This document shows positions 18,703-55,757 of a stretch of 64,000 nucleotides of DNA, in pieces (the stretch's first letter is position 1; each line of letters opens with the position of its first letter). Origin of the DNA: Flectonema sp. DT1601. Its lineage: Eukaryota. The translations under genes and the position numbers were made by a program. The notes under the pieces are model-generated. The model searched no databases and had not been told where the DNA came from. It was given only the letters and a program-made list of their open reading frames with translations. The stretch is from the NCBI GenBank assembly GCA_964019425.1, contig OZ025804.1:124001-188000 (forward strand). The letters run 5' to 3'.

Positions 18703-18748
18703 TTTAATTTTTTTTTTTTTTTACGTACGTACGTTAAGACAATAAAGT

Positions 18749-20642: not shown

Positions 20643-20896
20643 AAACTGTAGCTTTAGAATCGTTTTTTTTTTTTTTTTTTTTTTTTGTGTGCACAGCAGG
20701 TTCCTTCGACCTGCTTTGCTGTTTGCGCTGTTAGGCGCGGTTGTTCTTTCTTTCTTCTGTAAACTTTCTTTTTGTGGGGATTGGGGATGGGATGGGGGGT
20801 TCCCGTAGGCTTCGTATCTTCTTTGTTTTCTTTGTTTATCAATTACTAAAGAGTTCAGTTTACTTCCTCATTTGGTCTAAGAACCGCATCTTTAAA

Positions 20897-24862: not shown

Positions 24863-26543
24863 TTTGACAGTGGTTTTGGTTTGCTGTTACTTGGTGGGTA
24901 GTTCCGCTTAGCCCTACCTTGGCTTCTATCTTGTTGACGGCGGTTGCAATTTGAGATATTGCATTCAACATTAGTTGATAGTTTTTAACAATCATTTCTT
25001 CATTTTTCTTTGTCGCATTGGTCAGTCCTTCAATTATCTGCGTCATTTTTGACATCGTTTCATCCAATCTAGTTTGCAAGTCAGCTACCTCAGTTTGTAA
25101 TTTTGCTAGCGTCTCGTCAGTTCTTTCCTTCATAGTCTTGAGACCATCTTCTACTTTCTTCAGTTCTTGCGTTTTTCCCTGCGATGGGGGCAGTTTATTT
25201 TCTTGTTTTTTGGGCTGCTTGTTTCCTTGCAGTGTCTTTTTAGTTGCTTCCGCATAAGATATTTTCGCATCTCGATACTTTTGTACGGCTGGTTTTGGTT
25301 GTTTTTGGTCTTCTGGCAGCTCCATTTTCTCAATAGACATCAGGGTCTCACCACATTGTAAGAACTGGCTTTTCGGACTTTTATCGAGGGCGACCAAGAA
25401 GTCGCCTTTCTCCATGCGAATAAATTTAGAATTTAATCCCGCTTCCAAGAGCATTCCCTGGAGCCGGTTCGACCACCTGTACTGTGCACCACTGATACGG
25501 TACAGTCCAGCACCGTAGACTTGCGCAGCGAATTTTCCGGCACCCTTCCGTACTTTCTCTACGTTTGCAGAGGCACTCACCCTTATCCCTATCTTCCCAT
25601 AGTTGGTAGTCAGCCCCATGCACATGTCTTGTTGTGCCTTCAGGACTCCCATGGCTTCCTCATTCGAAGTTTTCCTGTCAAGCCATACTGTTTCATAGAC
25701 ATGCTTGGTCAGGCCCTCTATCGATTTTATCCTGAAGTAAACTTTGTTACTCCCTGAGTTGTGCATCAGTGCGATTGCTGCCTTTTCATCATTTGGTAGG
25801 ACTGTGACTTCACTAAAATCCCCCTTTCCAACTATCCGGAATGTCCTTGTGTCGACCCGTCCCTGATCACCCACCACTGCCTTGATTTTTGCAGTAAGCG
25901 ATGCTGGGTTTCTGATAGCATCTCCTCCTAGCTCCTTTGTTGTAGCCCACGCGATGAGTTCGTGAGTGATCGGTGGCTTTATGTTTGTTGCCACTATTAG
26001 TGTTGGGGTGTAGGTTGCTCCGGTAAAAGTCACAAACCACCATGATCTTATTCTTATTTGTCCATCAAATTGGACCGGCGTTTGTATCTGACTGCAGTCA
26101 GTTGCGTGTTTTAGGGCACGTTTTGGAGGTGGCCGTGTGAACACCATCGTCAGTTGCTTCGTTTTGCTGGCCTTTTCGAAGTATTGTTCGTCCAGGCTTC
26201 TTCCTTGTTGAGCCAATGAAAGTATAATTCCATTGGTTTTGCTGTTGAGGTCATCAGTTGGCTGGAGAATTTTGCAATTAAAATGCTCCTTGTTGAGTTT
26301 CGGTGGTGGTCCATTCAAGATCACCGTTGATCTTCTTTGTGCCTCTTTGATTTGAGGGCTTGATTGGGGTGCCTCATTTGACGGAGGGCTTTGTTTCGTT
26401 TTTAAAACACTTCCTTGTGCCTCTATGTTTTGAGGGCTTATTTGAATTGCCTCTTTGTTTTGAGGGCTTGTCTTTGTTTGAATTGCCTCCTTGTTTTGAG
26501 GGCTTGCTTGAAATGCTGCTGGAGGTCCTACTGCGGTCACCTC
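24855..26543 (-). pseudogene. 5'-truncated ORF1 of A4
   Basis: Begins at EVTAVGPP and lacks about 77 N-terminal aa of A2 ORF1; overlaps the ORF2 start by 8 nt (ATGATTGA). Confidence 0.82.
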
Positions 26544-26643
26544 AAAGACAAAACAAAGAAGTGAAAAGAACAAAAACAAAGAGTCTGGAAGCACAAACGA
26601 GTGTAACCAAAAGAAAAGAAAAATTCTTTTTTTAGCTTTTTTC

Positions 26644-29600
26644 TTTTTTTTTTTATTTATTTATTTATTTATTTAGTCACATCCCCCCTGTCTTTCCACT
26701 TTATTTTTCTTCATTCTGAGCATTCTTGCCCTTCTTATTTTTTGATAAAGTAAACAATTAAAAACAAGCGCAACTGTCCTGAGTCCGTTGGAGGACTTCC
26801 CCGGATAGGAATCTCAAGACACAGTTAATATAAAGCGAAGGATCAGTACAGGGACGGTGGCCAAAGACCACTGGGTTACCTACGAGCCATGAAGCTCTGC
26901 GGATGTCCTCAGAGAAATTAGGAGATGATTAAGGAGTGTGATAAGGAAGAATGATACTAATGAATTAGCAACTACCAATCAGTTAACAGTTTGATAAGCC
27001 TGTTCGTTGTTCCAAATGCCATAAGTAGCCGGCTAGGGCGTGAAGATTTCTCGTCGCAAACATTATTGAAAGATTTAGTTTGGTCTCGGAGATTCTCGCT
27101 TCCTGAATGTTTGATCTAATTGTTCCTTCTCTAATGCGGACCACGTCACCATCCTCGCAATCAAATATTAGATGTCGGGCAGAAGAGTCTGTTCTTTTGC
27201 AGAAGGGGCACTTTATCGGTAGTTCATTTACCCTGAGCAGGGGGTGAGAGCCCGTTCTGAACCTGGCTATCCTTATCTCTGATTCTCTCAGCATGTCCTT
27301 GGGGTATCGAGCCGCTCTCAGGCCTCCGGTAGCATCAAGATATTGCCTAAGCATCACCCGTTTGATCGGTGGTTTCGCCCTTGTTGAACCCTCCATAATC
27401 TTACCAAACAGCTTTCTGTTAGCTTCCCTCGCTATCCTTGACTTATGTGCGAAGAAGTCCATAGTCGTTGACACCGGCTTGCTCTTAACATCTTTTGAGA
27501 TCTTTTTCGCCAGTTCATCTGCCTTGTCATGCGGTTCAATTCCCACATGAGCTGGGATGAATTGGAGGTGAACGAATGAGTCTAATTTTCTTATCCCTTC
27601 TAGTATCGAGAGAGAGTTCAGCTTCCTCTGAGCCGCAATTCCACCACGCAGCTCATCCAGATTGGATTTAGAATCACTGAAGACTCTCGTGATTCCAGAT
27701 CTGGGACCCAAGACAGAGGTTGCTTTTTCAAATTCACTTATTAACAGCTTCAGAGTTACCTGTTCAGCTTTATAACTACTTTCCGTTGCAACAAGTCTCG
27801 ATGCCATGGTCCGTTCACACGGCGTGATCTGCACTGCCGCTGCGCCTGCCGTGTAGTTGACAGGGTCGTGGGATCCGTCAACAAAAATGGACGAGGTACA
27901 AGGCCTAAGTTCGCTGCAGTACTCCTCGAACTTAGCCTTGTCCACTTCAGCAACACAGGTCTTCGAATGTCCATATCCGCAAGATATCTCCAGGTTCGGA
28001 ACATCTATCCATGGCTCGATGCTGTCAGGCATGACAATCCCTTGGATCTCCATATTACGGTCCTCGGCCGGTAAAGTTGAACTCCAAGTTCCACTAGCGA
28101 TTCCCTTCGTAGAAGGAACCCAATCCAGTGACCGATACCTAAATAAGGCAATCCTGGCTTGCTTCTCAATCTGCAGTCTCATCGGGAGTATGTTCGCCTC
28201 CCACAGTAACGGAAGGGACCTTGTGTTGAAGCCGCAGCCGGTGATCTTTCTAGCTATCTCCCTCAGATTCAGGTCAATAGGTTTAAGCTGTTCATCTGTC
28301 AGGAAAGGTCCATAGCTCTCAAGCCCATACAGAATCCTTGAGAGGATGTACAAGTTCTTGATCATGTTCAGCGTTTTGAAATCAAAGTTGAATAGCTCCA
28401 ACTTTCGAAGCAGAACAAGTCCCTTCCTCGTCTCATCCAGTAGTTTATCCACTTGTGTACCATATGTAAGGTCATCGTCAATATGGACACCCAAGTACTT
28501 AACACTATCCACCATCGGCATGAGTACGGCAGTCAGCAACTTCACCCAGGTCGGATCCGGACCCACTGGCATCAGTTCAAGAAGTTCACTTGCCTTCGTA
28601 ACCTCCGTATCACCCAGCTTGAGGATCATCGCCCCATTTCCAAGTAATGGCCTACCTTCTTCATTTGACCGAATCATCCCAGCCAGTTCCTCCCTACTGA
28701 TCCGAAAGAAGTTCTCTCCTGACGTTCTGGGGAATCCCAGTCTCCAATACATATTCCTAGGACAGTCCACCGGCATCCCGCAGGTCTTCGAAACCGACAG
28801 TGCCATGTCATTATCTTTGCACCAACGATCCACTAACCCAAGGACTAATTGCGCCATCCGGTAAGTTACTTTAAAATCCTTATTCGAAACCACACAAGCT
28901 GTGTCGTCTGCGTAGAGTGCTGAAACACATCCGGTCTTCTCAAGTTTCTTAGCCAGGTCGTCGACATATATCAGATAAAGGAGAGGCCCAACAATCGACC
29001 CTTGCGGAACACCTTTCGTCACAGTTCTGTATGCGCTCAGATTGCCATTGACACTAACCTTTGCCTTCCTTCGCGTCAGAAAGTTAGCGACCCATCCGAT
29101 GAATGGTGAAGGAATCCCCATCGTCACCATTTTAGCAATCAGTTTAACATGATTTATCCTATCAAATGCCTCAGTGAAGTCGAAAGAGAGCAGTATCGAA
29201 CTCTTGCCACCTTTTCTCGCACCATGAAGCGCATTGACCAGCAGTGAGATTTGCTCGCAAGTATTCCTACCCCTTCTGAAACCTGCCTGAATGGAGGACA
29301 AGGCATTATTTGACGTCAACCAATACATTAGCCTGTCGTAAATTATCCGTTCAAGCATTTTACCGACTACAGATGTCAACGTGATCGGTCTGTAGCTGGA
29401 TAGCTTTTCTTTGGGTTTACCCGGTTTGTATACCGGTTTGATCATACCCTCTTTCCAGACCTTCGGAACTCTAGCTGAGAGCCAGGAGTCGTTGAACACC
29501 GCTAAGAGAAAACGTCTACCGGTTGCAGAAAGGTTCTTCAGCATCGCCCCGTGGATTCCATCAGGACCAGGAGCCTTACCAGTTTTAACCTTCTTGATGG

Positions 29601-30864
29601 CGCGCTCAAGCTCAGACATCACCAGAGGTCCACAAGCACCTACGTAATCACTTGGCTTCAGCTTCGAAGATTTCAGTTGTTTCCTGACAGAGGTCTTAAC
29701 GAACTGATCGAGAAATTTACTGGGGAGTTGGTCCTCACTGAATTCAGGGATTTGGACGTCCTGTCCCCCATCGGCATCCAAGTCCTTAATCTTCTTAAAG
29801 GCGAATGCAAAACCTTCACCTTGTGCAAGTTTCTCAGCAACGAATTTTCCCTTCGCTTGTTTGGTCTCAGGGGTTGAGGAATTCCACATTCTCCTCCTCT
29901 TACCCTGGATCCTGAGCCTTCTGCGGATGTTCTTCTTCGCCACATGAAGCAGGATACGGTTAAATGTTGCCGCTCTGATACCCACCTTCGGAGGACTGTT
30001 CACCTTGCTAAGTCGGTAATCCAAATCATGACGGAACGAGTACCAATCAGCTGTATTAAAGTCCCAGACTGATTTTTTCGATGCCTGGTTGTTAACTGTT
30101 TCCAGAGGTGAGAACGTATCAAAGACAGCAGCAAGAGGTAAGTGATCAGATCCATGTTCAGTGCCATCACCTATTAGCCCGAAGTGTAGTAGTAGTAACT
30201 CCTCGTGGTGTAGGATTGCATCCGGCGAAGTCCCGTGTCTCGGCAACGTCACAAATCCCGGATCGTTTGCAATTAGAAGGTTATTAGATCTGCACCACTC
30301 CAGAAGCTGGCAGCCCTTCGTATCCGTCTTCTTCGACCAGAGTTTATGATGGGCATTGAAGTCACCAGCAAATATAAACCTTTCATCACGCTTCAAAGGG
30401 AAGAGATCAAAATCTATCTTAGAACTTGGTGGCGAATACACGTTAAGAACATTTATCTCATCATTAATCCTGACACCCAATGTCTCAACAATTCCTCTAA
30501 CCGAAGGGATACAGACTTCATAGCAAGCATGCTGAAGGCCTCTCTTCACCATGGTGATTATACCGCCACCTCTACCCGGTCTATCTCTCCTGTACGTGAT
30601 GTAATTCCAGTGATATAGAGGCTTCCGAACTGAGGTTTCCTGCAGGCATAATACATCAGGGCTGTACTTTCCCAGGATATTTCCTATGAACTCCTCTCTT
30701 CCGTTGATCGTTCTGCAGTTCCAGCTGATAACTCGCAGCTCCGAAGTGGGTCCATCATGACGGCGTCTCGGTCCCGGATTCCTCTCTACGTCACCCGCCA
30801 GTAGCAGAAGACGCCTTCGCGTTTCCGCCCAATCCCGCCCGTCAAGTCACTTGCTCCCTACAAG
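26644..30864 (-). mobile_element. Non-LTR retrotransposon family B (Ingi/L1Tc-like, 2A-bearing), copy B1, truncated just upstream of ORF2
   Basis: (TAAA)n/A tail at 26644-26675, conserved 3' UTR, intact ORF2 with N-terminal 2A motif. Confidence 0.92.
26983..30846 (-). CDS. ORF2 of B1: 2A peptide, APE, RT, RNase H, CCHC; open frame starts right after TGA at 30847-30849, first ATG lies inside the APE domain
   Basis: Manual translation: *LDGRDWAETRRRLLLLAGDVERNPGP..VISWNCRTI..LCLQETS continues in frame into the 1189-aa ORF (GDFNAH, SDH, GVPQGS, YADD, YLG, VDGS, CPFC..H..C). Confidence 0.92.
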   Translation of the reverse strand, partial: LDGRDWAETRRRLLLLAGDVERNPGPRRRHDGPTSELRVISWNCRTINGREEFIGNILGKYSPDVLCLQETSVRKPLYHWNYITYRRDRPGRGGGIITMVKRGLQHACYEVCIPSVRGIVETLGVRINDEINVLNVYSPPSSKIDFDLFPLKRDERFIFAGDFNAHHKLWSKKTDTKGCQLLEWCRSNNLLIANDPGFVTLPRHGTSPDAILHHEELLLLHFGLIGDGTEHGSDHLPLAAVFDTFSPLETVNNQASKKSVWDFNTADWYSFRHDLDYRLSKVNSPPKVGIRAATFNRILLHVAKKNIRRRLRIQGKRRRMWNSSTPETKQAKGKFVAEKLAQGEGFAFAFKKIKDLDADGGQDVQIPEFSEDQLPSKFLDQFVKTSVRKQLKSSKLKPSDYVGACGPLVMSELERAIKKVKTGKAPGPDGIHGAMLKNLSATGRRFLLAVFNDSWLSARVPKVWKEGMIKPVYKPGKPKEKLSSYRPITLTSVVGKMLERIIYDRLMYWLTSNNALSSIQAGFRRGRNTCEQISLLVNALHGARKGGKSSILLSFDFTEAFDRINHVKLIAKMVTMGIPSPFIGWVANFLTRRKAKVSVNGNLSAYRTVTKGVPQGSIVGPLLYLIYVDDLAKKLEKTGCVSALYADDTACVVSNKDFKVTYRMAQLVLGLVDRWCKDNDMALSVSKTCGMPVDCPRNMYWRLGFPRTSGENFFRISREELAGMIRSNEEGRPLLGNGAMILKLGDTEVTKASELLELMPVGPDPTWVKLLTAVLMPMVDSVKYLGVHIDDDLTYGTQVDKLLDETRKGLVLLRKLELFNFDFKTLNMIKNLYILSRILYGLESYGPFLTDEQLKPIDLNLREIARKITGCGFNTRSLPLLWEANILPMRLQIEKQARIALFRYRSLDWVPSTKGIASGTWSSTLPAEDRNMEIQGIVMPDSIEPWIDVPNLEISCGYGHSKTCVAEVDKAKFEEYCSELRPCTSSIFVDGSHDPVNYTAGAAAVQITPCERTMASRLVATESSYKAEQVTLKLLISEFEKATSVLGPRSGITRVFSDSKSNLDELRGGIAAQRKLNSLSILEGIRKLDSFVHLQFIPAHVGIEPHDKADELAKKISKDVKSKPVSTTMDFFAHKSRIAREANRKLFGKIMEGSTRAKPPIKRVMLRQYLDATGGLRAARYPKDMLRESEIRIARFRTGSHPLLRVNELPIKCPFCKRTDSSARHLIFDCEDGDVVRIREGTIRSNIQEARISETKLNLSIMFATRNLHALAGYLWHLEQRTGLSNC

Positions 30865-30880
30865 AATAAATAAAACCCTA

Positions 30881-33800
30881 TTTTTTTTATTTATTTATTT
30901 AGTCACATCCCCCCTGTCTTTCTACTTTGTTTTTATTCTTTCTGAGCATACTCGCTCTTCTTATTTTTTAACTAAGTAAATAAGCAACAACGAGTGCAAC
31001 TGTTGTGAGTCCGTTGGAGGACTTCCCCGGATAGGAAGCTCACGACACTGTAAGTACAAAGCGAATGATCAATACGGAGACGGTGGCCAAAGACCACTGG
31101 GTTACCTGCGAGCTATGAAGCTCTACGGATGTCCTCAGAGAGTTATTAGGAGATGAATTAGGAGTGATGTATGAGTATGATATACTAAAAAGATAGTAAC
31201 TTCTGATAACAGCTTGTTGCCGTCCATTGTTCTAAATGCCATATGAAGCCAGCGAGGGAATGTAAGTTCCTCGTAGCGAACATAAATAGCAGGCTGTGTT
31301 CCTTCTTTGAAATCTTCGCTTCTTCCATGACAGATCCAATTGTTCCATCTCTGATGCGTACCAGAGCAGAGTTCATGCAGTTAAACATCAAGTGTCTAGG
31401 TGATGAGTCCGTCCGTCTACAAAAAGGGCACTTCAGTTGTACGCCTTTGTCTCTCAGCAAGGGGTGTGAACCCGTTCTGAATTGTGCAATTCTTACTTCC
31501 GAAGCTCTCAGCATGTCTTTCGGATATCTAGCAGTTCTCAATCCTCCGGTCGCCTCCAGATACTGTCTGAGCATCACCCGTTTCATTGGAGGCTTTGCCT
31601 TCTCGGAGGCTTCCATCATCTTTCCTATCAACTTCCTGTGAGACTCCCTCGCTACCCTTGATTTGTGGGCGAAGAAATCCATGGTCGTTGAGACCGGTTT
31701 ACTTTCGGCATCCTTCGAGACTTCTTTGGCCAGCTTATCAGCCTTATCGTGTGGTTCAATCCCCACATGGGCCGGGATGAACTGGAGATGCACCTGTGTC
31801 TTCAGATCCCTAATGCTTTCCAGTATTAACAGAGAGTTCAACTTCCTCTGGGCAACAATCCCTCCATTGAGTTCCTCCAGGTTGGATTTCGAGTCACTGA
31901 AGATTCTGGTAATACCTGACCTGGGACCCAAGATCGAGTCAGCTTTGCCAATTTCTCTCATCAGCAGTTTGAGTGTTACTTGTTCAGCCTTGTAGCTGCT
32001 TTCAGTAGCTACAAGTCTTGACGACATCGTTCTCTCAGTTGGTGAGACCTGTACTGCTGCCGCACCCGCAGTGTAGTTAACAGGATCATGTGAGCCGTCC
32101 ACATATATAGCCGAGTTGCAAGGGACTAAGTCCCTGCAGTATTCCTCAAATTTGTTCCTATCCACATCTGCATCACCGGTCTTGTTATGACCATACCCAC
32201 AGGATATCTCTAGATTTGGTACATCCGCCCAAGGTTCGATGCTGTCAGGTTGAACTATTCCTTGGAGGGCGATGTTACAATCTTCCTGCGGCAACTTAGA
32301 ACTCCAGAATCCTTTCGCTATTCGGTTCGTCGAACGTACCCACTTCAGCGATCGATACCTAAACAGAGCAGTTCTGGCCTGTTTTTCTATTATCAACTTC
32401 ATCGGGAGCATGTTCGCCTCCAAGAGCAGTGGGAGAGACCTGGTGTAGATGCTGCAACCCGTTATCCTTCTCGCAATCTTCTTCAGATTCAAGTCCACAA
32501 GATCAATCTGACCCTCAGATAGGAAAGGACCGAAGCTCTCCAGCCCATATGACAGCCTTGAAAGTATGTACAGGTTCTTGACCATGCACAGCGTCTTAAA
32601 ATCAAAATCATACTGTTCTAGTTTCCCCAGGAGTGCAAGACCCTTCCTGGTCTCATCCAGCATCTTTCCGACCTGTGTTCCATAAGATAAATCACCATCA
32701 ATGTGCACCCCCAGGTATTTAACGCTGTCTACCATCGGCATCAGTACTGCGGTTAACAACTTTACTCTCAGCTTACTTGATCCATCAGGGAAAATTGCAA
32801 GCAGGTCCTTCGTATTAGCAACTTCGGTATCATCCACCTTGAGAATGGTTTCTCCACTCCCCAGAATTGGCCTTCCAAACTCGTTCGGTCTGATCATCTT
32901 AGCCAGATCTCCCCTGCTTACAACGTAATAATTATCCTTTGCAGTCCTGGGGAAGCCCAGTCTCCAGTAGATATCCTTTGGGCAGCGCACAGGCATACCA
33001 CATGTCTTAGAGACGGACAGTGCCATATCATTGGTTTTGCACCAGCTATCCACAAGTCCAAGGATCCATTGCGCTTTCTTATTGGTTAAATTAACGTCCT
33101 TATCAGAGACTACACAAGCGGTGTCATCTGCATAAAGAGCCGAAACTGAGCCAGTCTTCTCCAACAACTTTGCCAGGTCATCAACATAAATCAGGTATAG
33201 CAGCGGACCGATAATCGATCTTTGGGGAACCCCCCTCGTTACCGTTCTGTAGGAGCTAAGGTTGCCATTCGCACTCACCCTTGCCTGCCTGCCCTTCAGG
33301 AAGTCAACTACCCATGCAATGAACGGGGAGGGAATACGCATGTTCTTCATCTTCTTGATCAGTTTCTCATGATTAATTCTATCAAATGCTTCCGTGAAGT
33401 CGAACGACAGCAGAACAGAGCTCTTGTTCTTTTCACTGGCCTCATGAAGAGCGTTGACTAACATTGAAATCTGCTCACACGTATTCCTTCCTCTTCTAAA
33501 ACCCGCCTGGATAGACGACAGGGCATTGTTCTGGGTAAGCCAATACATCAACCTATCATAAATCACTCTTTCAAGTACTTTACCCACCACCGAGGTCAAC
33601 GTGATCGGTCTGAAACTTGCGATCTTATCTTTTGGCTTACCTGGTTTGTAAACTGGCTTGATAAGACCCTCCTTCCAGATCCTCGGTACCTTTGACGTTA
33701 GCCACGATTCATTGAATAACGCCAGGAGGAAATCCATTCCTATCACCGATAAGTTCTTCAACATTATCCCATGGATCCCATCTGGACCTGGTGCTTTCCC

Positions 33801-35181
33801 GGGCCTTACCTTCTTGATGGCTCGCTTCAGTTCAGTCATTGTTAGATTCCCTCCGATTTTGGCGAAGTCGCTGCTCTTCGTATTCGGAGGTCCTAGTTTA
33901 CGTTTTGTCGGGGTCTTGACAAATTGTTCCAAGAACTTCGCAGGTAGTTGGTTCTCGTCAAACTCCGGAATGTGAATTTCACGTCCTTCATCCGTCTCAA
34001 GGTCCTTTATCTTTTTGAACGCATATGCAAAGCCTTCACCTTTTGCTAGCCGTTCAGCGATAAATTTTCCCTTCGCACGCTTGGTATCTGGGGTGGAAGC
34101 GTTCCACATTCTTCTTCTCTTCCCTTTGATCCGAAGCCTTCTCCTAACGTACCTCTTCGCTACTCCAAGAACGATTCTGTTGAACGTTACTGCTCTTCTC
34201 CCAACGCTCGCAGAGTTGTTTACCTTTCCAAACCTGTAGTCTAGTTCATGTTCATATGAGTACCAATCAGCTGTATTGAAGTCCCAGACCGATCTCTTCG
34301 TCGCGTGGTTGCCCGAAGGCTCAAGGGGTGAGGGCGTATCGAAGGTAGCAGAGAGTGGTGTATGATCCGAACCGTGCTCAATTCCTTCACCTACCAGCTC
34401 AAAGTTAAGCAGTTGAATCTCCTCGTGGTGCAGGATCAGATCGGGCGAGGTCCCATGTCTCGGCAGTGTCGCTAGACCTGGCGGGTTCGCAATCAGGAGG
34501 TCCTCTTGCCCTGTCCAGTTGAGAAGGTCACAGCCTTTTACGTCGGTTTTCTTGGACCAGTACCTATGGTGTGCGTTGAAGTCACCAGCGAGAATGAACT
34601 TGCCAACACGTTTCAGGGAGAATAGTTCAAAATTAATCCTCGAGCTCGGTGGGGAGTAGATGTTGAGAATACTTACGTCTTCGTTAATTCTGACACCCAT
34701 CGACTCGACGGTTCCTCTCATCGACGGTATGGAGATATCAAAGCAATCATGTTGAATTCCTCGTTTTATTAAAGTGATCAGGCCACCTCCCCTTCCTGGC
34801 CTATCCCTCCTGTAGCAAACGTAGTTCCAATGAAACAATGCCATCCTGCAAGAAGTCTCCTGAAGGCAAAGTACGTCGGGGTCAAGCTTACTCAGGATGT
34901 GTCCAATGAACTCCATTTTGTTCGAGATGGTGCGACAATTCCAACTGATTACATTTAGTTTGCAAGAGGGACCATCCTTTCTCCTATTTGGCCCTGGGTT
35001 TCGTTCAACGTCCCCTGCTATCAGCAAGAGACGTCTTCGAGTCTCAGCCCAGTTCCTTCCATCTACGTGCCGTCATTTACCTTCCAAGAATCTCGTCATC
35101 AGCATCTCTAAACGATCCATCCTTCGTTCCATCGTATCCTGTTCAGCTGTCGACTTCATCACAGTTTTCTTTGTCACAACC
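30881..35181 (-). mobile_element. Family B copy B2, 5'-truncated in the C-terminal part of ORF1
   Basis: (TAAA)n tail, conserved 3' UTR, intact ORF2, and 35 codons of an upstream ORF ending in TGA at 35073-35075. Confidence 0.92.
31185..35072 (-). CDS. ORF2 of B2: 2A peptide, APE, RT, RNase H, CCHC
   Basis: *RHVDGRNWAETRRRLLLIAGDVERNPGP followed by WNC, LQET, GDFNAH, SDH, YADD, YLG and VDGS. RT motif reads GVPQRS (G to R), possibly inactivating. Confidence 0.92.
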   Translation of the reverse strand, partial: RHVDGRNWAETRRRLLLIAGDVERNPGPNRRKDGPSCKLNVISWNCRTISNKMEFIGHILSKLDPDVLCLQETSCRMALFHWNYVCYRRDRPGRGGGLITLIKRGIQHDCFDISIPSMRGTVESMGVRINEDVSILNIYSPPSSRINFELFSLKRVGKFILAGDFNAHHRYWSKKTDVKGCDLLNWTGQEDLLIANPPGLATLPRHGTSPDLILHHEEIQLLNFELVGEGIEHGSDHTPLSATFDTPSPLEPSGNHATKRSVWDFNTADWYSYEHELDYRFGKVNNSASVGRRAVTFNRIVLGVAKRYVRRRLRIKGKRRRMWNASTPDTKRAKGKFIAERLAKGEGFAYAFKKIKDLETDEGREIHIPEFDENQLPAKFLEQFVKTPTKRKLGPPNTKSSDFAKIGGNLTMTELKRAIKKVRPGKAPGPDGIHGIMLKNLSVIGMDFLLALFNESWLTSKVPRIWKEGLIKPVYKPGKPKDKIASFRPITLTSVVGKVLERVIYDRLMYWLTQNNALSSIQAGFRRGRNTCEQISMLVNALHEASEKNKSSVLLSFDFTEAFDRINHEKLIKKMKNMRIPSPFIAWVVDFLKGRQARVSANGNLSSYRTVTRGVPQRSIIGPLLYLIYVDDLAKLLEKTGSVSALYADDTACVVSDKDVNLTNKKAQWILGLVDSWCKTNDMALSVSKTCGMPVRCPKDIYWRLGFPRTAKDNYYVVSRGDLAKMIRPNEFGRPILGSGETILKVDDTEVANTKDLLAIFPDGSSKLRVKLLTAVLMPMVDSVKYLGVHIDGDLSYGTQVGKMLDETRKGLALLGKLEQYDFDFKTLCMVKNLYILSRLSYGLESFGPFLSEGQIDLVDLNLKKIARRITGCSIYTRSLPLLLEANMLPMKLIIEKQARTALFRYRSLKWVRSTNRIAKGFWSSKLPQEDCNIALQGIVQPDSIEPWADVPNLEISCGYGHNKTGDADVDRNKFEEYCRDLVPCNSAIYVDGSHDPVNYTAGAAAVQVSPTERTMSSRLVATESSYKAEQVTLKLLMREIGKADSILGPRSGITRIFSDSKSNLEELNGGIVAQRKLNSLLILESIRDLKTQVHLQFIPAHVGIEPHDKADKLAKEVSKDAESKPVSTTMDFFAHKSRVARESHRKLIGKMMEASEKAKPPMKRVMLRQYLEATGGLRTARYPKDMLRASEVRIAQFRTGSHPLLRDKGVQLKCPFCRRTDSSPRHLMFNCMNSALVRIRDGTIGSVMEEAKISKKEHSLLFMFATRNLHSLAGFIWHLEQWTATSCYQKLLSF

Positions 35182-35200
35182 AATAAATAAAAACCCTAAA

Positions 35201-38200
35201 TTATTTTTTTATTTTTATTTTGTCACATCTTTCTTGTCTCTCTTTCATTTTGCTTTTTTTATATTCTGAGCACCAACGCTCTTCTTATTTTTTAACAAGA
35301 CAAAGATACGCGTGCAACTGTCAGGAGTCCGTTAGAGGACCTCCACGGATCGGCAGCTCCTGACACTGTGCTTGCAAAGCGAGAGATCAACGTAAAGACG
35401 GTGGCCAAAGACCACTGGGTCACCTGCGAGCCGAAAGGGCCCTACGGTTGTCCTCATAGAACTAGGAGATAAGGAGAAAGAATGGAGAAGATGTATACTA
35501 AAAGATAATAGTATTGACTTGTTTAACTACAGCTGAGTGCTGTCAGGTTTGAACCCATTGCTCCATGTTCCATATGAATCCGGCAAGGGCATGCAAGTTA
35601 CGTGTAGCAAACATGAACGGAAGACTCAAGGCAGTCTTCGAGATTCTTGCTTCCTCAATAATTTCACCAATAGTTCCTTTTCGAATGTACATCAGCGCCG
35701 CAGCAGTGCATTCCAGTATCAGATGACGTGGTGAAGACTCCGTTCTTTGACAAAAGAGACACATCCGAGGAACTTCTTTAATTCTAAGTAAGTGATGAGA
35801 TCCAGTCCTGAATCTAGCTATTCTAATTTCTGATGACCTCAGCATGTTGGGGGGGTAACGAGCAGCCTTGTAACCCCCAGTGGCTTCCAGGTATTGTCTC
35901 AGCATGACACGCTTGACAGGGGGCCTCGCAGTCTCAGCACCTTCAAGCATCCTGCCAAATAGCTTCCTACCGGTTTCGCGTGCAACCCTCGACTTGTGTG
36001 CAAAGAAGTCCATTTTTGAATTAACTGGCTTCCCATCCAAATCTTTAGAAGCTGCCTTAGCCAGTTTATCAGCCTTGTCGTGAGGATCAATCCCTACATG
36101 CGATGGGATGAATTGAAGATGGACAAAGGTCCCCAATTGTTTGATTTTGTTCAGTATCGACAGCGAATTCACCTTCCTCTGAGCCACAATACCTCCCTTC
36201 AGTTCATCTAAATTCGACTTCGAGTCACTAAATATCCTTGTGATCCCGCAGGTAGATCCAAACGGCGAGTTTATCTTGCCAATTTCATAAACCAATAATT
36301 TCAGAGCTATCTGTTCAGACTTGTAACTACTTTCGGTGGCCACAAGTCTGGATGCCCTGGTACACTCTACCGGTAAGACCTGCACGGCCGCTGCACCAGC
36401 AGTGTAGTTCTTAGGGTCATGAGATCCATCAGTATATATCGTGGAGTCAGAGGGTCTGAGTTCCCTGCAGTATTCATCAACTTTAGTTTATCAGCTGCAG
36501 CATCGACAGTTTTGGAGTGTCCGTAGCCACACGATATCGAGAGGTTCGGTACATCTGCCCACGGTTCAATACTGTCGGGCTGTACTATATCTTGAATTGA
36601 GATCTGTCGATCCTCAGGCGGTAGTTTTAAACTCCATAGACCACTAGCAATTGAACGAGTTGAGGGGACCCACTTCAGAGATCTGTACCTGAAGAGGGCA
36701 GTCCTTGCTTGTTTTTCGATCAGAAGGCGCATTGGCAGCATATCCGCTTCCCACAACAGCGGCAAGGAGCGTGTAAAGTCACTGCAACCCGTGATCCTCC
36801 TCGCGACTTTCCTAAGACTGAGATCGATTGGCCCAAGTTGTTCATCAGTTAGGAATGGGCCGAAGCTTTCCAGACCGTAGGACACCCTTGAGAGGATGTA
36901 GAGGTTTTTTACCATCTGTAATGACTTAAAATCGAGGTTATAAGGTTCGAGCTTCCTCAGCAGAGCCAGTCCCTTCCTAGATTCGTTCAGTATTTTATCA
37001 ACTTGTGTATCGTACTTGAGATCATCATCGATGTGGACCCCAAGGTACTTTACGCTGTCCACCATCGGCAAGAGAACCGATGTTAGTAATCTTACCCGAG
37101 TCCGTTGCGGGCCAGCGAGTATGACCCTCATTAAATCATCAGTGCTAAGGACTTCAGTGTCATCGATCTTTAGAATTGTTTCACCACTTCTTAATATTGG
37201 CCTCTTAGAGTCATTTGGTTGCAACATCTTCCTCAAATCATCCCTGTTCACCAGATAGAAATTGTCTTTCACCGTCCTGGGGAAGCCCAGTCTCCAGTAC
37301 ACATTCTTCGGACATCCCACCGGCATCCCGCACGTTTTTGAAACAGACAAGGCCATGTCGTTGTCCCTACACCAAGTATCAACGAGTCCCAGTATCCATT
37401 GAGCCTTCTTATTCGTACTTGATAGGTCCCTATCCGATATGACACAAGCAGTGTCATCGGCATAAAGAGCCGAGATAGAACCAGTTTTCTCCAAAGTCTT
37501 TGCGAGGTCATCCACATAGATCAGGTAAAGAAGCGGACCCACGATTGAACCTTGAGGAACACCCATTGAGACCGTCTTGTATGAACTAAAGTTTCCGTTA
37601 GCTTCCACCCTTGTGCGTCTTCCTGAAAGGAAGTTGGCTATCCACCCAATGAACGGGGAGGGAATGCCCATAGCTTTCATTTTTGCAAGGAGTTTGGTGT
37701 GATTTATTCTGTCAAAAGCTTCCGTGAAATCGAATGACAGTAATATAGAACTCTTCTGGGTTGCATCGGCCTCATGTAGTGCATTCACAAGTAGGGAAAT
37801 CTGTTCACATGTGTTCCTTCCTCTTCTAAAGCCAGCTTGGATCGAAGACAGAACTTTGTTCTGGGTGAGCCAAAACATCAATCTGTCATAAATAATTCGT
37901 TCTAGAACCTTACCAACTACTGAAGTCAGCGTAATTGGTCTATAGCTTGCCACCTTTTCTTTTGGTTTGCCAAGTTTGTGAACAGGCTTGATCAAGCCTT
38001 CCTTCCAGATCTTCGGCACTTCGGTCGACAACCAGGAGTCGTTAACTAGAGACAGAAGGTGCACCTTGCCCAGCGGGGATAAATTCTTAATCATCGTTCC
38101 ATGAATCCCATCCGGACCAGGAGCCTTGCCTGACTTAACTTTTTTCAGTGCAAACTCTAGTTCAGACATTACTACAGGCCTACACACATCTTTGTAGTCG

Positions 38201-38301
38201 CTAGGTTTAACAGACGGTGATTTCAACTTCGGTCTATTTGAGGTCTTGACATATTGGTCTAGGAACTTTTCGGGCAGCTGTTTCTCATCGAACTCAGTAA
38301 T
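35201..38301 (-). mobile_element. Family B copy B3, 5'-truncated (no APE), frameshifted near 36480
   Basis: ORFs 36367-38226 (RT) and 35543-36385 (RNase H/CCHC) are homologous to B1/B2; conserved 3' UTR and A-rich tail. Confidence 0.9.
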
Positions 38302-38362
38302 ACAAATAAAAACCCTATTTTTTATTTATTTTTATTAAATAAAAAACCCTAAATTTAGCAGA

Positions 38363-38369
38363 GCCGCTT

Positions 38370-38418
<49 letters not shown>

Positions 38419-38435
38419 AATCCCAGGTGGTGGCA
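38363..38435 (+). tRNA. tRNA-Phe (GAA)
   Basis: 73 nt: D-arm GCTC/GAGC, anticodon arm TCAGA-CTGAAGA-TCTGA, T-arm CCTGG-TTCAATC-CCAGG, A and B boxes. The acceptor stem has G-U pairs and a U7-U66 mismatch. Confidence 0.93.
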
Positions 38436-38440
38436 TTTTT
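38436..38440 (+). terminator. RNA polymerase III terminator (T5)
   Basis: TTTTT immediately after the discriminator base. Confidence 0.75.
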
Positions 38441-38588
38441 ACGTCAGGACTGACATTGGAAAAATTATTCCAGTGTTCATCAGAAATAGAAAATCTTTTG
38501 TAAAGCCATTTCAGGTGTGGAGAACCTTTCTTGTATAAGGGTCTCAGGATCACATTGGCAGATGCTTAGGGAGTATCTGGTATTGAAC

Positions 38589-38650
38589 AAAACCCTGGTT
38601 TTATTATTATTTTGTCACATCTTTCTTGTCTCTCCTTTTTGCTTTCTTTT
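38589..38650 (-). mobile_element. Very short 3'-terminal remnant of a family B element
   Basis: TTTTGTCACATCTTTCTTGTCTCTC matches the B3 3' terminus (about 35219-35243), with an A/T tail and an adjacent AAAACCCT. Confidence 0.65.
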
Positions 38651-38973
38651 TAACACTGGACAACATTGCTCTTCTCGGAACATTAGATCATGTTCTCCAG
38701 AAAGGAGGCATTTGCAAGGTGCAAGGAGAATGAAGGGCAAAACAAGTTCCCCGGCGAGTGATGCCTCGTCAGATATTTTCCACAAGGAAACAGTCAGGAG
38801 AAGATTGTGTGACAATGTCAGAGTTTTCTCCAGTTTCTTCACAAGTGCAGATATAGGATCCATTTCCAACTTCACATGCAAGTGTGCTTTCAGGGAAGAG
38901 AACAAACATAGTGCAGATGAGGGACGGAGGGCTGTTGCCACATTGCAACATGTATGGAGCGCCAGCGATGACG

Positions 38974-39459
38974 CTAATTCTTCGACGTCTGTGTGACTTT
39001 GCGGTTGACCTTAGCCAATACAAACACAACAGATGTGAGGGATGAACAATGACTTAGAAAGTAATTTCCAACAACTGAAAAATTGCTGAGACCTGATAAG
39101 TCAACAGATGTGACGTATTGAAGACCAGGAAGACTGACCTTTATAACCTTACGAGATGAGGATAAGAAATCATCCGAAACGGTCGTGACTGAGGGTTCAG
39201 GGTTGCTGAATGAGATGTTCGTAACATCATCCAAGAACCACTCACCCACAGCGAATGTGGGAGTATCAAGGCAGAAAAACCCGTCCTGATCCCGTTCTCC
39301 TCGTAGGAATGCCTTCGCTCTCTTTGCAGCATCTGTGAACCATTCCAATCCAAACAAGTGCACCACAGATGCAACCAACAGCGAGCCGTCCTCCACTCCG
39401 TGCGACACCAGTCGACTACCTGCTCGAAGCAGCGATCCTGCGAATGAAAGCTCGAACAT
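38974..39459 (-). pseudogene. Deleted/truncated paralog of the ubiquitin-like + LRR genes
   Basis: Near-identical to parts of 40982-42082, but lacks the N-terminus and most repeats. Confidence 0.8.
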
Positions 39460-39681
39460 ATTTCTTCAAACAGACTTCTTTTTCTTACATATCACGATTT
39501 AGTCTCAACCTATTGAAGTTAGGGGTTCTGATGTCATCTTCGCTGTTAAGTGAAAAGTGATAATTAAGTTTCACTTTAAAAGAAGAAACAGACAAATCAA
39601 AAACAAACAGTGGCCGACTTTAGCCAAACAACACAGTGATTGCGGTGACAAGTTCGCATCAGAAATACTCAAATTCATGCA

Positions 39682-40269
39682 TCACATGCCTCCCAGCAAG
39701 ACTTCACTACAACCAGATAAGAAGTAATAACGACCATCACTGTAGCAGTTGCCTATTCCTGTAATGTTTTTCAACACTGAAATGTTGAGTGATTCCAAAG
39801 CAGGACAACAAGAGAGGAAAGCTTCTCCAATATTTGTTAATTTTCTGAATGAGGAAATGTCAATCGAAGTTAACCCAGCACATCCAAGTAGGAATCCAGC
39901 TCCAATGGTTGTGACATTCTGAAGACAAGACAGATTTAGGCTTTTTATTGAGGTACAACCACACAGAAAATAATCCCCCAATGCTTGTACGCTGTCGAAA
40001 CACATGAAATTCAATAATTCGATGTTAGAATTTGATAAAAAAATTGTGTCAACAGAAGAAATGACAAGATCCGCATTGAAAAACGCTATTCTCTGAACTT
40101 CGAGAGGCAACATCTCAGATTGAAAATCAAAGCATCCATCCACAGTGAAGGTTGTTGCGTCAACACATGATACGTTTCTAACGAGTGTCGATTCAGTCAC
40201 CATCAACGATATGTCTGACAACAAAGATGTTGAATGTGATATTGTGACTTGTATTGTTTCTTTATTCAC
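39682..40269 (-). pseudogene. LRR protein of a second subfamily, internally deleted relative to its paralog at 42400-42798
   Basis: LRR-type FLxGCxxLxSxxxSxLxxxTxIG repeats; N-terminus shared with ORF 42514-42798. Confidence 0.6.
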
Positions 40270-40981
40270 ACCATTACTTGTGAAAAGTTACCCAAATGAT
40301 CAAAAGGGAATGAGGAAATTGCCATTAAAATAATTTTTAATAATGAAGTATAGCGAATACCATATGCATGACGTAAACTATACAACTCAGCTAAGCTGTG
40401 TAACACCAACACAAGATGTTCTCCATTACATTAATATTTCAGCTGTACGATTGTACGATTGTATTTAAATATGAGCGTTACTGAATTTTTCGATCCACCG
40501 AACCTGAAGAAATTCCTAATTATCCGTGGAAGCAAAAGAGACAATTTCGGTAATAAGCTTCCCATCACTGTTTGCACCTGAGAAGGAAATATGATAAGAG
40601 AATAAGGCATTAACTAAACAAGCTGAGATCAACACAAAGAAGTATCTACACTGTATGGGTGCAGATTACTTCCACTCGAGCAGGGATTGTGTCAGGCCCG
40701 TTTCGATTCGATCGGACACTGGCGGGGGAAAGGGCGGGTGGGGAATACCAAATGGGGTTGGGAGTCTGATAGAATATGACCCAGTCAAGGGAATAAGAAC
40801 ACTGCAATGCAATCAAACATTCAATTCCAACTAACAAACACTTGTTAAGAGTGTGTGAGCGAAACACACATCTTCCTTTCTGAAAACACCATCGAATAAA
40901 AGATAAATTAAATACCCCAAAACAAAACAAAACAAAAGGAACAACGCACACACACTAAAAACAACACTGATGTGATTTATG

Positions 40982-42082
40982 TCATTTCAAATCCTTTATG
41001 CTCGTATGCAGTTCGTCTCTGTTAATGGATGAACAACCTCTTAGGAAATTACTTCCAACGAATTGCACATTCATGAGGGTTAAATCCAAGGAAGTAAGTG
41101 ATGAACAATTAAATAGAAAACAGTCTCTAACAACTGAAACATTGCTGAGACTTGATAAGTTAACAGATGTGAGCGATGAACAACTTCTTAGGAAAGAGTG
41201 TCCAACAACTGTAACATTGCTGAGACCTGATAAGTTAACAGACGTCAGGGATGAACAATTATTTAGAAAACCATCTCCAACAGCTGAAATATTGCTGAGA
41301 CTTGATAAGTTAACAGATGTGAGGGATGAACAATAATATAGAAAACCATCTCCGACAGCTGAAACATTGCTGAGACTTGATAAGTTAACAGATGTGAGGG
41401 ATGAACAAAAATATAGAAAATAGTCTCCGACAGCTGAAACATTGCTGAGACCTGATAAGTTAACAGATGTGAGGGATGAACAATTATTTAGAAAACCATC
41501 TCCGACAGCTGAAATATTGCTGAGACTTGATAAGTCTACGGATGACAGTGAATTGCAATCTTGGAGGAAATTATTACCAACAGATGTGACGTATTGAAGA
41601 CCAGGAAGGCTGACCTTTATAACCTTACGAGATGAGGATAAGAAATCATCCGAAACGGTCGTGACTGAGGGTTGAGAGTTGCTGAATGAGATGTTCGTAA
41701 CATCATCTGAGAACCACTCACTGTTACTAAACTGAAGACAGCCATCCACAGCGAATGTGGGAGTATCAAGGCAGAAAAACCCGTCCTGATCCCGTTCTCC
41801 TCGTAGGAATGCCTTCGCTCTCTTTGCAGCATCTGTGAACCATTCCAATCCAAACAAGCGCACCACAGATGCATCCAACAGCGAGCCGTCCTCCACTCCG
41901 TACGACACCAGTCGACTACCTGCTCGAAGCAGCGATCCTGCGAGTGAAAGCTCAAGAAAGTCAGCATCGGTACCCCACTCATCAGCTGCAACCTGCAATG
42001 CATCCTTCACGAGCGACTCTCCAGAAGCTGTGAAAACAACGTCAGGAAACCCTGTGTCTGGGAACGTAACCGAGAGTTGCAT
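40982..42082 (-). CDS. N-terminal ubiquitin-like domain plus 25-aa LRR protein (about 366 aa)
   Basis: Start MQLSVTF taken from the paralog at 45901; repeats of SSLTSVNLSSLSNVSAVGDGFLxxC. Confidence 0.85.
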   Translation of the reverse strand: MQLSVTFPDTGFPDVVFTASGESLVKDALQVAADEWGTDADFLELSLAGSLLRAGSRLVSYGVEDGSLLDASVVRLFGLEWFTDAAKRAKAFLRGERDQDGFFCLDTPTFAVDGCLQFSNSEWFSDDVTNISFSNSQPSVTTVSDDFLSSSRKVIKVSLPGLQYVTSVGNNFLQDCNSLSSVDLSSLSNISAVGDGFLNNCSSLTSVNLSGLSNVSAVGDYFLYFCSSLTSVNLSSLSNVSAVGDGFLYYCSSLTSVNLSSLSNISAVGDGFLNNCSSLTSVNLSGLSNVTVVGHSFLRSCSSLTSVNLSSLSNVSVVRDCFLFNCSSLTSLDLTLMNVQFVGSNFLRGCSSINRDELHTSIKDLK

Positions 42083-42399
42083 TTTAACTCGCCTGAGTAA
42101 CCTACGAAATGTGATGATGAATGGCTTGGAGTATGATGAGATTAAAGAACGTGTAAAAACAAATTTCTTCAAACAGACTTTCTTTTTTTTTTGTTGCACA
42201 ATATGGTCCCAACCTATTGAGATTAAATGCCACTGGGGGTTCTGACAATGTCATCTTCGCTGTTAAGTAAAAAATGATAATTAAGTTTCGCTTTAAAAGA
42301 AGAAACAGACGAACCAAAAACAAACAGTAGTTGACTTCAGCTAAACAACACAGTGATTGCGGTGACAAGTTCCGTATCAGTTTCTGAGTCCACTCTGAA

Positions 42400-42798
42400 C
42401 GATGAACTCCGAGAAGCAACATCTCAGATTGAAAATCAAAGCATCCATCCACAGTGAAGGTTGTTGCGTCAACACATAAAATGTTAAAGCTATCAGTGAA
42501 CATGGTGGATAATTTATCTTTTTTTTTCTTTAGTTGTAAACCATATCTTACTAAAGAGAGTCATTGTTGATGCCATTGGATGGGAATTTGAATCAATTCC
42601 GTGTGAAAGTAAAATACTTTCTTCTGAAAGAACAATGCCAGCATAACTTATCTCAAGGATTTCATTTTCTATATCCCACTCATCAGCCACAGCCTCTGAT
42701 ACGTTTCTAACGAGTGTCGATTCAGTCACCATCAACGATATGTCTGACAACAAAGATGTTGAATGTGATATTGTGACTTGCATTGTTTCTTTATTCAA
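42400..42798 (-). pseudogene. Truncated 5' part of a second-subfamily ubiquitin-like/LRR gene
   Basis: Homologous to 40100-40269; contains AVADEWDIE..LEISYAG..LLSHGI (ubiquitin-like); frameshifted at an A-run and truncated. Confidence 0.6.
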
Positions 42799-43269
42799 AC
42801 CATTACTTGTGAAAAACTAACTAAATGATCAAAATAAATGGCTGCGCCAATCGAGGAGGAGGAAATTGTCATTAAATAGTCTTTCAGCTTTGTCTGTATC
42901 TCCCAGAGCCAATGTCTCAGATGGATCTTAGCAGGTCCCCTCGGCATTGAATTCCTTGTGCAGATGCATTTAAGGTTTGGGTGGCAAGTCTTTTCGAAGC
43001 ATGTCGGTATGTAGCCACCGCATGATTCTCCCTCCTAGTTTTCAAGATTGGAGTGTAGTTACTTTTAAGTATCATGTTTCATAATAATAAAAGGATTAAT
43101 CTGATGAATATTTGACCTTCATTTACTTTAGTCAAAAGTATGAAGGGGACTCGTTGGAAATCCTTTTTTCGTGTTCTTCTTTTTGTCTTATTAGTTGGGA
43201 ATTTCGTTCGGCACACGGAACTTTTTTTTTTTTTTTTGTTATTTTGAATTAAAATCTTCGTTCCTAAAA

Positions 43270-43545
43270 ATATTACAAATGTGAATTTAAAATGACTAAT
43301 CCAGAACCTCTCGGTTGGGTGTTGTTTTTCAAGAAGTCAGGTTTATTAATAACTTTCAGTGTCATTGGGAAAAAGTGGATATTTTCTTTTTCCAATCAAT
43401 TTGTATAATGGTTGAGTAGATTTCCCCTGAACTGAGCGATTGCTCTAAAGTTGTTTTTCTCGACCTCACGAAGTTATACAAGTTTGACCAACATAACGGA
43501 TGTGTCCTTTCTTACACAATTAACCATAAATTACTTCTGTATATT
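43270..43545 (-). pseudogene. Degenerate GIY-YIG endonuclease relic (Penelope-like element?)
   Basis: Manual translation EVIYG*LCKKGHIRYVGQT....REKQ..QPLYKLI and, after frameshifts, ERFWI; contains stop codons. Confidence 0.5.
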
Positions 43546-43844
43546 CTTGTGGTTGTGCTTCCGTGGCTTTCACCTCGTTAATGACAGCCATGTGATTGAT
43601 TGTTGATAATAATAATAATAAAACTGAATACATATGAACTACATCACTATCTGTTCATCATCGTATGGTGTGAAGTCCCTGGGGAGTTCCTTGTTTTAGT
43701 AATTACTTTGAGGGAGTAATAAGATACTTAATCAGGCTCAATGTAACAACACTACGGGGAAGCTAAAGTCATACGGCACTGGAGAATCACAGCAGGGAGA
43801 GGATCCCAGAAACGTCAATCAAAAAAAGGTTCACAAAAGAGAAG

Positions 43845-55385: not shown

Positions 55386-55757
55386 TATTGTTGTCTTTTG
55401 TTTTGTTTTGGTTTGATATGCTGCGGTAAGGAATAAAGATAAGATAATATAATAAATACTTCAGTAGTGTCATAAATATTAACTATCCAGATCCTCTATT
55501 CGACGTGGCTCTCTCAAAGGAAACCGACTGGCGGAAATCAGAAAACCACACACAAGACGTTGTTTTGCTTTTTCGCTGAGACCAATTTAACCTTTAAAGA
55601 AAGAAAGTTGGTTTAGTTTCAGCGACGCAACCGGAGAAAAGGAAAAGGGAGATAAAACAAGAACACGGAGGGAGAGACAGAGAGCAGAATTGCTAATTGA
55701 TCTTCCGGATAATTATATTTCTAAGAATACGTTGAGTGGTTCTAACAACAATAAGCA

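Follow-up and report, generated by a model that had tools for sequence, protein, structure and literature searches.

It has long been asked how a bicistronic LINE RNA yields its small amount of ORF2p, and the solutions described in the reviews consulted are stop/start coupling (SART1) and unconventional reinitiation (LINE-1). Both elements have a bicistronic RNA and an ORF2 AUG, with a UAAUG overlap in SART1 and a 63-nt spacer in LINE-1 (PMC5972666, PMC10275272).

2A peptides placed just before the LINE APE endonuclease have already been described. According to the accessible portions of two papers (PMC3708506, PMC3894237), L1Tc, ingi and other 2A-bearing APE elements carry the canonical GD(V/I)ExNPGP at this place and mostly lack an ORF1, the exceptions being CR1-26_BF, CR1-53_BF and CR1-1_LG. 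An in-frame stop before the 2A is not described in these portions of the L1Tc/ingi papers, and the word "readthrough" is absent from the main text of PMC3708506. In the pseudoscorpion Cordylochernes scorpioides, the 2A lies between the ORF1p and ORF2p domains of single proteins (PMC13405545).

Readthrough, in turn, is known from viruses. In MuLV gag-pol, it gives a minority polymerase product from an abundant upstream ORF, the viral readthrough fusion being later cut by a protease (PMC8310308, PMC13517186), and a UGA-CGG followed by a 3' extended stem-loop constitutes the type II signal of VEEV and CTFV (PMC13517186).

ORF1, an In-Frame UGA, and a 2A-Like Peptide Precede ORF2

The window analyzed here is a stretch of 64,000 nt from Flectonema sp. 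DT1601 (contig OZ025804.1), in the first 38 kb of which non-LTR retrotransposons are arrayed head to tail, all on the minus strand. B1 and B2 are 5'-truncated copies of an APE-RT element, each encoding an APE endonuclease and, behind it in the same ORF, an RT (matches to Pfam Exo_endo_phos(_2) and RVT_1 exceed the cut-off), and B3 is a third copy:

31185..35072, minus strand: B2 ORF2 (APE, RT, RNase H-like region, C-terminal Cys/His motif)
26983..30846, minus strand: B1 ORF2, 72% amino acid identity to B2 ORF2
35543..38304, minus strand: B3, copy of a third subfamily, 5'-truncated inside ORF2

ORF2 is open to 31185 in B2 (1295 codons) and to 26983 in B1 (1287 codons). B3 has one frame break near 36367-36487 and begins inside ORF2, thus showing no junction. 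Pfam gave no RNase H match for B1 or B2 at E 0.001, and acidic motifs are visible by eye; the B3-type protein P0173 reached E=0.003, below cut-off, and the Flectonema protein P0003 matched above cut-off.

Upstream of ORF2, B2 and B1 present the following junctions:

35076..35180, minus strand: last 35 codons of ORF1 in the 5'-truncated copy B2
35073..35075, minus strand: in-frame UGA ending ORF1 in B2 (AAA-UGA-CGG), the proposed readthrough codon
34989..35072, minus strand: B2 linker and 2A-like peptide, 27 codons to Gly, then Pro
30850..30864, minus strand: five codons upstream of the B1 stop, presumed to be an ORF1 tail
30847..30849, minus strand: in-frame UGA in B1 (AAG-UGA-CUU)
30769..30846, minus strand: B1 linker and 2A-like peptide, 25 codons to Gly, then Pro

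The sequence-only reading had held that each junction is read in a single frame from the stop to the endonuclease, and this was borne out: B2 runs on the minus strand from TGA-CGG (TGA 35075-35073) to NPG/P-APE, and B1 from GSK-TGA-CTT (TGA 30847-30849) over 25 codons to the Pro at 30771. Both have Lys-UGA-C and 25-27 codons from stop to skip site, and the frame-preserving indel that had been reported between them consists of 6 nt immediately after TGAC. The claim that no AUG precedes the endonuclease holds as well, since no in-frame ATG occurs between the stop and the WNC motif in either copy; the first in-frame Met lies inside APE, past WNC, and the NPGP Pro sits 16 residues ahead of the W of WNC. 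The 2A cores (DVERNPGP at 35012-34989 in B2, with Pro starting at 34991; 30792-30769 in B1) belong to the sequences LLLIAG-DVERNPGP and LLLLAG-DVERNPGP, which match the class A 2A (StopGo) pattern of an LLLLSG-like hexamer followed by the core D(V/I)ExNPGP (motif groups of PMC12846837). Junction DNA comes from these two copies and from one short contig of sequencing run X1 (168 nt), which has identical letters across the B2 stop and maybe derives from the same sample.

Because both copies are 5'-truncated, the window holds only the tail of ORF1 (35 codons in B2, five in B1). When the 40 codons ahead of the B2 stop were used as query, a single protein was returned, P0190 (1054 aa), and 34 of the 35 residues of the B2 tail are identical to its C-terminus. 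The full ORF1 of the B2 family, as represented by copies elsewhere, therefore has 1054 aa. P0190 belongs to a cluster of 23 members; among the 15 listed, ORF1 ends at the same Lys in ten, at 97-100% identity, and earlier in five, and none extends past it. ORF1 and B2-type ORF2 members occur on contigs of equal size in four cases (23348, 190111, 463091 and 634926), which we take to be the same contigs. The order ORF1-UGA-linker-2A-ORF2 is thus real for the B2 family, and to this extent an ORF1 upstream of the stop, as claimed by the sequence-only reading, is confirmed through P0190; for the truncated B1, we infer the same layout from five codons. Pfam gave no match for P0190, and its similarity to the ORF1 of family A, another group of elements in the window, is faint (pairwise blastp E 0.004-0.013).

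The database proteins are in line with a retained stop. None of the ORF2 calls listed starts upstream of the 2A (0/15 of the 42 B2-type, 0/15 of the 74 B1-type), and in eight B2-type and six B1-type calls the start is the first Met inside APE, a warning that gene callers shorten ORF2s of this kind to a start within the endonuclease and overlook the 2A, which is absent from all 30 of these calls. A fused protein of 2268-5000 aa was found in none of 2076 candidates, which is weak evidence. If the stop were a defect or the in-frame layout a coincidence, the copies being dead or their masters having a sense codon or an AUG, one could understand why both window copies are 5'-truncated and why P0205, a frameshifted B2-type singleton fragment, has its start Met five residues upstream of the 2A core. 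We regard this as very improbable, given that both ORF2s are intact over about 1290 codons, that the same ORF1 end recurs in the P0190 cluster as described above, that two subfamilies 28% diverged have the stop position in common, and that no upstream-started or fused ORF2 appeared among the calls examined.

ORF2 might also come from differently processed RNA, be it a subgenomic mRNA that is trans-spliced separately, one translated from an internal non-AUG start, or one whose stop has been removed or edited. Copies of family A start with a 39-nt spliced-leader-like repeat (12519-12481), suggesting that these elements are trans-spliced; we take this repeat to be the diplonemid spliced leader, and a literature search for it gave no match. 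The 5' junction of B2 ends in the same seven letters as the family A repeat, but this 7-mer occurs 15 times on the minus strand and overlaps the target motif of the elements. Moreover, trans-splicing would give no in-frame AUG before APE, an RNA starting in the ORF1 tail would still meet the UGA, and pyrimidines make up 34% of the region, which is thus rich in purines. The B2 stop lies within an 18-nt GT...AG segment, whose removal would fuse ORF1 in frame to the conserved linker; B1 has no counterpart, however, and spliced RNA would yield fused retrotransposed copies, of which the candidates mentioned above contained none. Altogether, we consider an origin of ORF2 from processed RNA improbable.

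Relatives With and Without an AUG

Among named relatives, four protein clusters of Flectonema neradi come nearest to B2 ORF2, with 37-48% identity; together with the spliced-leader-like repeat of family A, they make a diplonemid host likely. In a FastTree tree of 34 ORF2 rows, which included no named ingi or L1Tc row and no formal clade test, B1-B3 group with Flectonema P0003 (support 99), and this group adjoins a clade with the families P0005, P0159 and P0006 of the same collection. F. neradi P0003/P0143 and the families P0005 and P0159 belong to the same RT lineage (FastTree support 96-100) and have the same 2A-APE junction, but their ORF2 begins at a Met located 16-29 residues before the ExNPG motif, whereas B1 and B2 have no AUG there. 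P0003, P0005 and P0159 thus begin as Met-(short peptide)-2A-APE, and for P0006, near P0159, the call starts with a Met inside APE. In B3-type proteins, a Met precedes the W of WNC by five residues. It is likely that the AUG-started 2A is ancestral and that the loss of the AUG in B1 and B2 is derived, although the presence of an AUG is labile.

These relatives set the limits of any readthrough model. The 2A can exist without readthrough, as the Met-(short peptide)-2A-APE of the sister families shows, and since B3 has its Met just before APE as well, readthrough is not needed family-wide. The sequence-only reading had proposed readthrough followed by 2A for family B. The layout stands for the B2 family, with readthrough now its best explanation; the proposal does not yet extend to all of family B, because the ORF1 of B1 is unseen and the third subfamily has a Met directly before APE.

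Compared with L1Tc and ingi, the junction described here has the same canonical motif directly before APE. PMC3708506 also characterizes the ingi/L1Tc group by a single ORF and no ORF1. The B2 family differs in having a 1054-aa ORF1 that stops 27 codons before the skip site and an ORF2 without AUG. The likeness to the C. scorpioides elements lies in the 2A between ORF1p and ORF2p; those are described as single proteins (PMC13405545), whereas a stop codon separates the two here and would add a second, ratio-setting step.

Searches of metagenome contigs returned no close relative (71 loci, whose best segments are mostly 22-37% identical), three loci were matched in viral contigs, and in GTDB the 80 matches retained, out of at least 231 confirmed, were all distant. 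The 2A motif was seen in 0/71 and 0/3 loci, hence in none of the 74 from metagenome and viral contigs. As a viral background, we inspected 135 GD(V/I)ExNPGP sites from 124 of an estimated 440 viral loci: an AUG-less in-frame stop at most 40 codons upstream was present at 0/135, and two sites had a stop followed by a Met.

Selection on the Linker

The UGA-C context had been put forward by the sequence-only reading as a leaky signal. The context is indeed kept between B1 and B2, but Lys-UGA-C by itself does not go beyond chance. UGA-C is found at three of 14 other ORF ends checked in the window, two of them AAA-UGA-C in two paralogous LRR genes, and drift alone would keep TGA plus C with a probability of roughly 0.2, as estimated from the B1-B2 identity at neutral sites (57% at A/G two-fold and 35% at four-fold sites). 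What does exceed chance is protein-level selection on the linker, together with its shared fold.

Other recoding candidates were considered at this stop. A recoded nuclear code was rejected, ordinary ORFs here ending in TGA. Selenocysteine insertion at the UGA was unsupported, with no SECIS family among the Rfam matches, and so was -1 frameshifting, with no slippery heptamer near either junction.

The linkers were compared from codon 2 of B1 and codon 4 of B2 to the Pro. Of their 25 residues, 23 are identical, with pS 1.04 (about 1.0) and pN 0.05, against pS 0.73 and pN 0.17 in the body of ORF2. The first eight codons, which lie upstream of the hairpin described below and of the usual 2A helix, have seven synonymous changes and one non-synonymous (binomial p=1e-4), and the two other frames contain stops. 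By this test, the linker is translated. In B1, CUU alone separates the stop from the conserved stretch; with selection starting one codon after the stop, ribosomes are therefore already in the linker frame there. Neither copy has an AUG or near-cognate codon at the beginning of the linker, and the first in-frame near-cognate codons (B1 codon 9, B2 codon 6) fall inside the conserved stretch. Ribosomes must thus either pass the UGA or start at an adjacent non-cognate codon.

The second of these routes deserves attention, since AUG-independent reinitiation at the stop would lead one to expect an anatomy much like that of readthrough. Here, ORF1 would terminate, ribosomes would reinitiate at or beside the UGA with help from the stem-loop, and the 2A would only clip a leader of 25-27 residues, just as it would in the sister families with an ORF2 AUG. 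Reinitiation of L1 ORF2 is AUG-independent. Family A, which lacks a 2A, has an AUGA stop/start overlap in copies A2-A4, and the junctions contain AUGA in B2 and GUGA in B1, perhaps as relics; the sister ORF2s, moreover, begin Met-2A-APE. The known systems point the same way: SART1 needs a downstream structure, which serves reinitiation and not readthrough there, the reinitiation that produces LINE-1 ORF2 is unconventional, and caliciviruses can reinitiate at non-cognate codons (PMC5972666, PMC10275272). Nevertheless, the overlapping AUG or GUG is in the -1 frame, which closes after ten codons in B2 and two in B1, and B1 would have to initiate at CUU or GAC. In addition, reinitiation would leave the linker free to take any frame relative to ORF1, whereas in B2, and apparently in B1, the two share a frame despite saturated synonymous divergence. 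We therefore hold reinitiation to be rather unlikely, although it is the alternative to be taken most seriously.

A Predicted Stem-Loop Within the Linker

Both linkers are predicted to fold:

34990..35056, minus strand: predicted extended stem-loop of the B2 linker
30836-30770, minus strand: homologous predicted stem-loop of B1

In B2, the prediction comprises an outer helix (35052-35048/34998-34994) and an inner hairpin (35034-35023/35019-35008). The B2 linker stands out in a shuffled-sequence fold test (z -3.45), and the B1 linker by itself is no more stable than its dinucleotide shuffles (z 0.0 and -0.33). Among 2000 synonymous randomisations, three were as stable as the inner hairpin in B2 and 62 in B1, which beats its synonymous shuffles only modestly (62 and 203 of 2000). 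The inner hairpin ranks first of 1274 sliding windows of 11 codons. The joint consensus fold over 25 codons has -23.3 kcal/mol, against a randomised mean of -7.8; its stability is reached by 0/5000 synonymous randomisations, and it is the best of 1260 ORF2 windows, the next non-overlapping one having -13.6. All 18 base pairs are kept between B1 and B2, eight of them through one-sided changes, and these two sequences show no two-sided compensatory change. The shared fold is accordingly a prediction from two sequences and not a proof by covariation.

StopGo is not conferred by mRNA structure (PMC12846837), so the linker fold needs another purpose. UGA-CGG with an extended 3' stem-loop makes B2 resemble the type II signals of VEEV, SINV and CTFV (PMC13517186, PMC8310308). 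B1, with UGA-CUU, is no exact fit to UGA-CGG or UGA-CUA. Counted from the first letter of the stop (+1), the stem begins at +14 in B1 and +20 in B2 and the strong inner hairpin at +36 and +42, compared with stem starts of +9 to +16 in the alphavirus, coltivirus and MoMLV entries in a table of PMC13517186, whose counting convention is our inference. Both the B1 hexamer, which is outside those listed, and the somewhat larger distance of the stem count against the readthrough reading.

A Candidate Double-Recoding Cassette

Selection one codon past the stop, the absence of a near-cognate start and the conserved stem-loop make readthrough the best explanation of the junction. We consider it probable, with some reserve, that a programmed readthrough of the UGA is followed by StopGo release of ORF2. 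Most ribosomes would stop at the UGA and produce ORF1p. A minority, likely assisted by the stem-loop predicted for the codons that follow, would decode the UGA as an amino acid, probably Trp, Cys or Arg, and add about 26-28 residues to ORF1p, the last of them NPG; the 2A motif, 25-27 codons past the stop, would then free ORF2 with an N-terminal Pro. This free APE-RT protein would share its N-terminus with the sister families in which ribosomes arrive at the 2A from an ORF2 AUG. A single stretch of 75 nt would serve both as an RNA readthrough signal and as the nascent StopGo peptide, and the output would be abundant ORF1p, little extended ORF1p and a free ORF2p starting with Pro. As in MuLV gag-pol, the polymerase would be a minority product of an abundant upstream ORF; there the fusion is later cut by a protease, and here release would be cotranslational (viral comparison from PMC8310308 and PMC13517186).

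A broader version of this reading, to which we give an even chance, is that of a double-recoding LINE cassette, with a leaky UGA, a 75-nt stem-loop that also encodes the 2A, and a StopGo step that frees ORF2p, which would have arisen in diplonemids when an AUG-started 2A-APE became stop-gated and would achieve a retrovirus-like gag-pol rationing without a protease. The two recodings are known singly, 2A peptides from LINEs and readthrough from viruses, and both occur in Providence virus, though at different sites. In cardioviruses, StopGo is coupled with frameshifting. The sequence-only reading had called the two-step recoding unfamiliar from non-LTR elements, and readthrough into a 2A in such an element was likewise not found in the mainly open-access literature searched, although published 2A catalogues may hold similar cases. 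If true, the combination of readthrough and StopGo would be another route to a rationed LINE ORF2p, an unusual two-step way of rationing a copying enzyme with a cassette under 100 nt, and the LINE 2A would gain a clear job, that of turning a readthrough fusion into a free enzyme. Judged from two DNA copies, the feature is real and better supported than the sequence-only reading could show.

Insertion Sites of the B Copies

Further features of the array concern the sequences that flank the B copies:

35199..35542, minus strand: B3 3' UTR with its A-rich tail, as opposed to a B2 5' UTR
35186..35198, minus strand: target-site motif TAGGGTTTT(T)ATT before B2
38363..38435, plus strand: tRNA-Phe(GAA) gene

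Segments homologous to the 3' UTR of B3 trail B2 (about 30881-31184) and B1 (about 26650-26982). The idea that these conserved 330 nt represent a 5' UTR or ribozyme of B1 and B2 was rejected, since they follow all three ORF2 stops, one of which has family A next. A search of Rfam over 26000-40000 gave the tRNA as the sole match with a credible score, hence none for the 5' Pr77 signature or HDV-like ribozyme of the ingi/L1Tc clade, the 5' ends being absent from all B copies of the window.

The three B copies have three different truncation points and TAAA/poly(A) tails, and the same target-site motif precedes each of them, in keeping with the target-site duplication of APE-type non-LTR elements; besides the copy before B2, TAGGGTTTT(T)ATT occurs at 30869-30880, 38305-38317 and 38338-38351. 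TRE5 and NLTR-B insert repeatedly at a fixed distance upstream of many tRNA genes (PMC5006619), whereas here a single locus is concerned. The B array begins 59 nt upstream of the tRNA-Phe(GAA) gene, with its 5' ends toward the tRNA, and at this one locus the motif is also present directly upstream of the gene, at 12-25 and 46-58 nt.

Target Site of Family B Elements

A tRNA-Phe(GAA) gene adjoins the head-to-tail array of family B non-LTR retrotransposons (window 38305-38435), and the 5' ends of the copies point toward it. We found two occurrences of the target motif, the short sequence that precedes each B copy, beside this gene, where they flank a tail-only insertion, and further occurrences directly before the copies B2 and B1. 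Judged from this one locus, B elements have likely inserted repeatedly and site-specifically upstream of tRNA genes, in a manner similar to that of Dictyostelium TRE5 and NLTR-B. The opposite side of the tRNA-Phe gene carries a remnant B-type 3' end (38599-38675; 81% to the UTR of copy B3).

The 3' UTRs of the B copies are conserved at 75-87%, above the level of the B ORFs:

35199-35542, minus strand, B 3' UTR
30881-31184, minus strand, B 3' UTR
26650-26982, minus strand, B 3' UTR

Their predicted consensus fold is long, with two-sided changes in 11 of 76 pairs among the three sequences.

ORF1 Protein and Stop Codon of B2

The N-terminal half of the B2-family ORF1 protein (P0190, residues about 85-530) is very long, Gln/Glu-rich and coiled-coil-like; a Pfam search with P0190 returned no matches. 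The B2 stop lies within an 18-nt GT...AG segment (35064-35081) whose excision would preserve the frame. Since B1 has no equivalent, this segment is likely a product of chance.

Family A and Other Elements

At the starts of copies of family A, another non-LTR family of the array, a 39-nt spliced-leader-like repeat occurs whole or in part (12471-12519, 18740-18752, 20640-20664). Trans-spliced family A RNAs were therefore likely copied into DNA, leader included. Between ORF1 and ORF2, family A has no 2A; the stop and start codons overlap there as AUGA. An expanded (TTTC)n microsatellite of about 790 nt lies within a family A 3' UTR (1160-1950).

One leader-like repeat is split at CTGT by another element:

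18749-20645, element whose direct repeats are split (18749-18955 = 19207-19413; 19017-19213 = 20449-20645)

It contains an RT/RNase H-like ORF (19330-20514), for which a Pfam search gave no matches, and resembles a DIRS/Ngaro-type tyrosine-recombinase element.

The ORF at 65-1153 encodes Cys/His motifs and an OTU protease domain (Pfam PF02338); it stands at the head of another element extending past the window edge. Site-specific LINEs bearing OTU are known.

Host genes outside the array were labelled by eye:

38974-46006, host genes
51012-57332, host genes

Among them, several genes carry leucine-rich repeats, and one ORF of 1482 codons is ABC-transporter-like and intronless.
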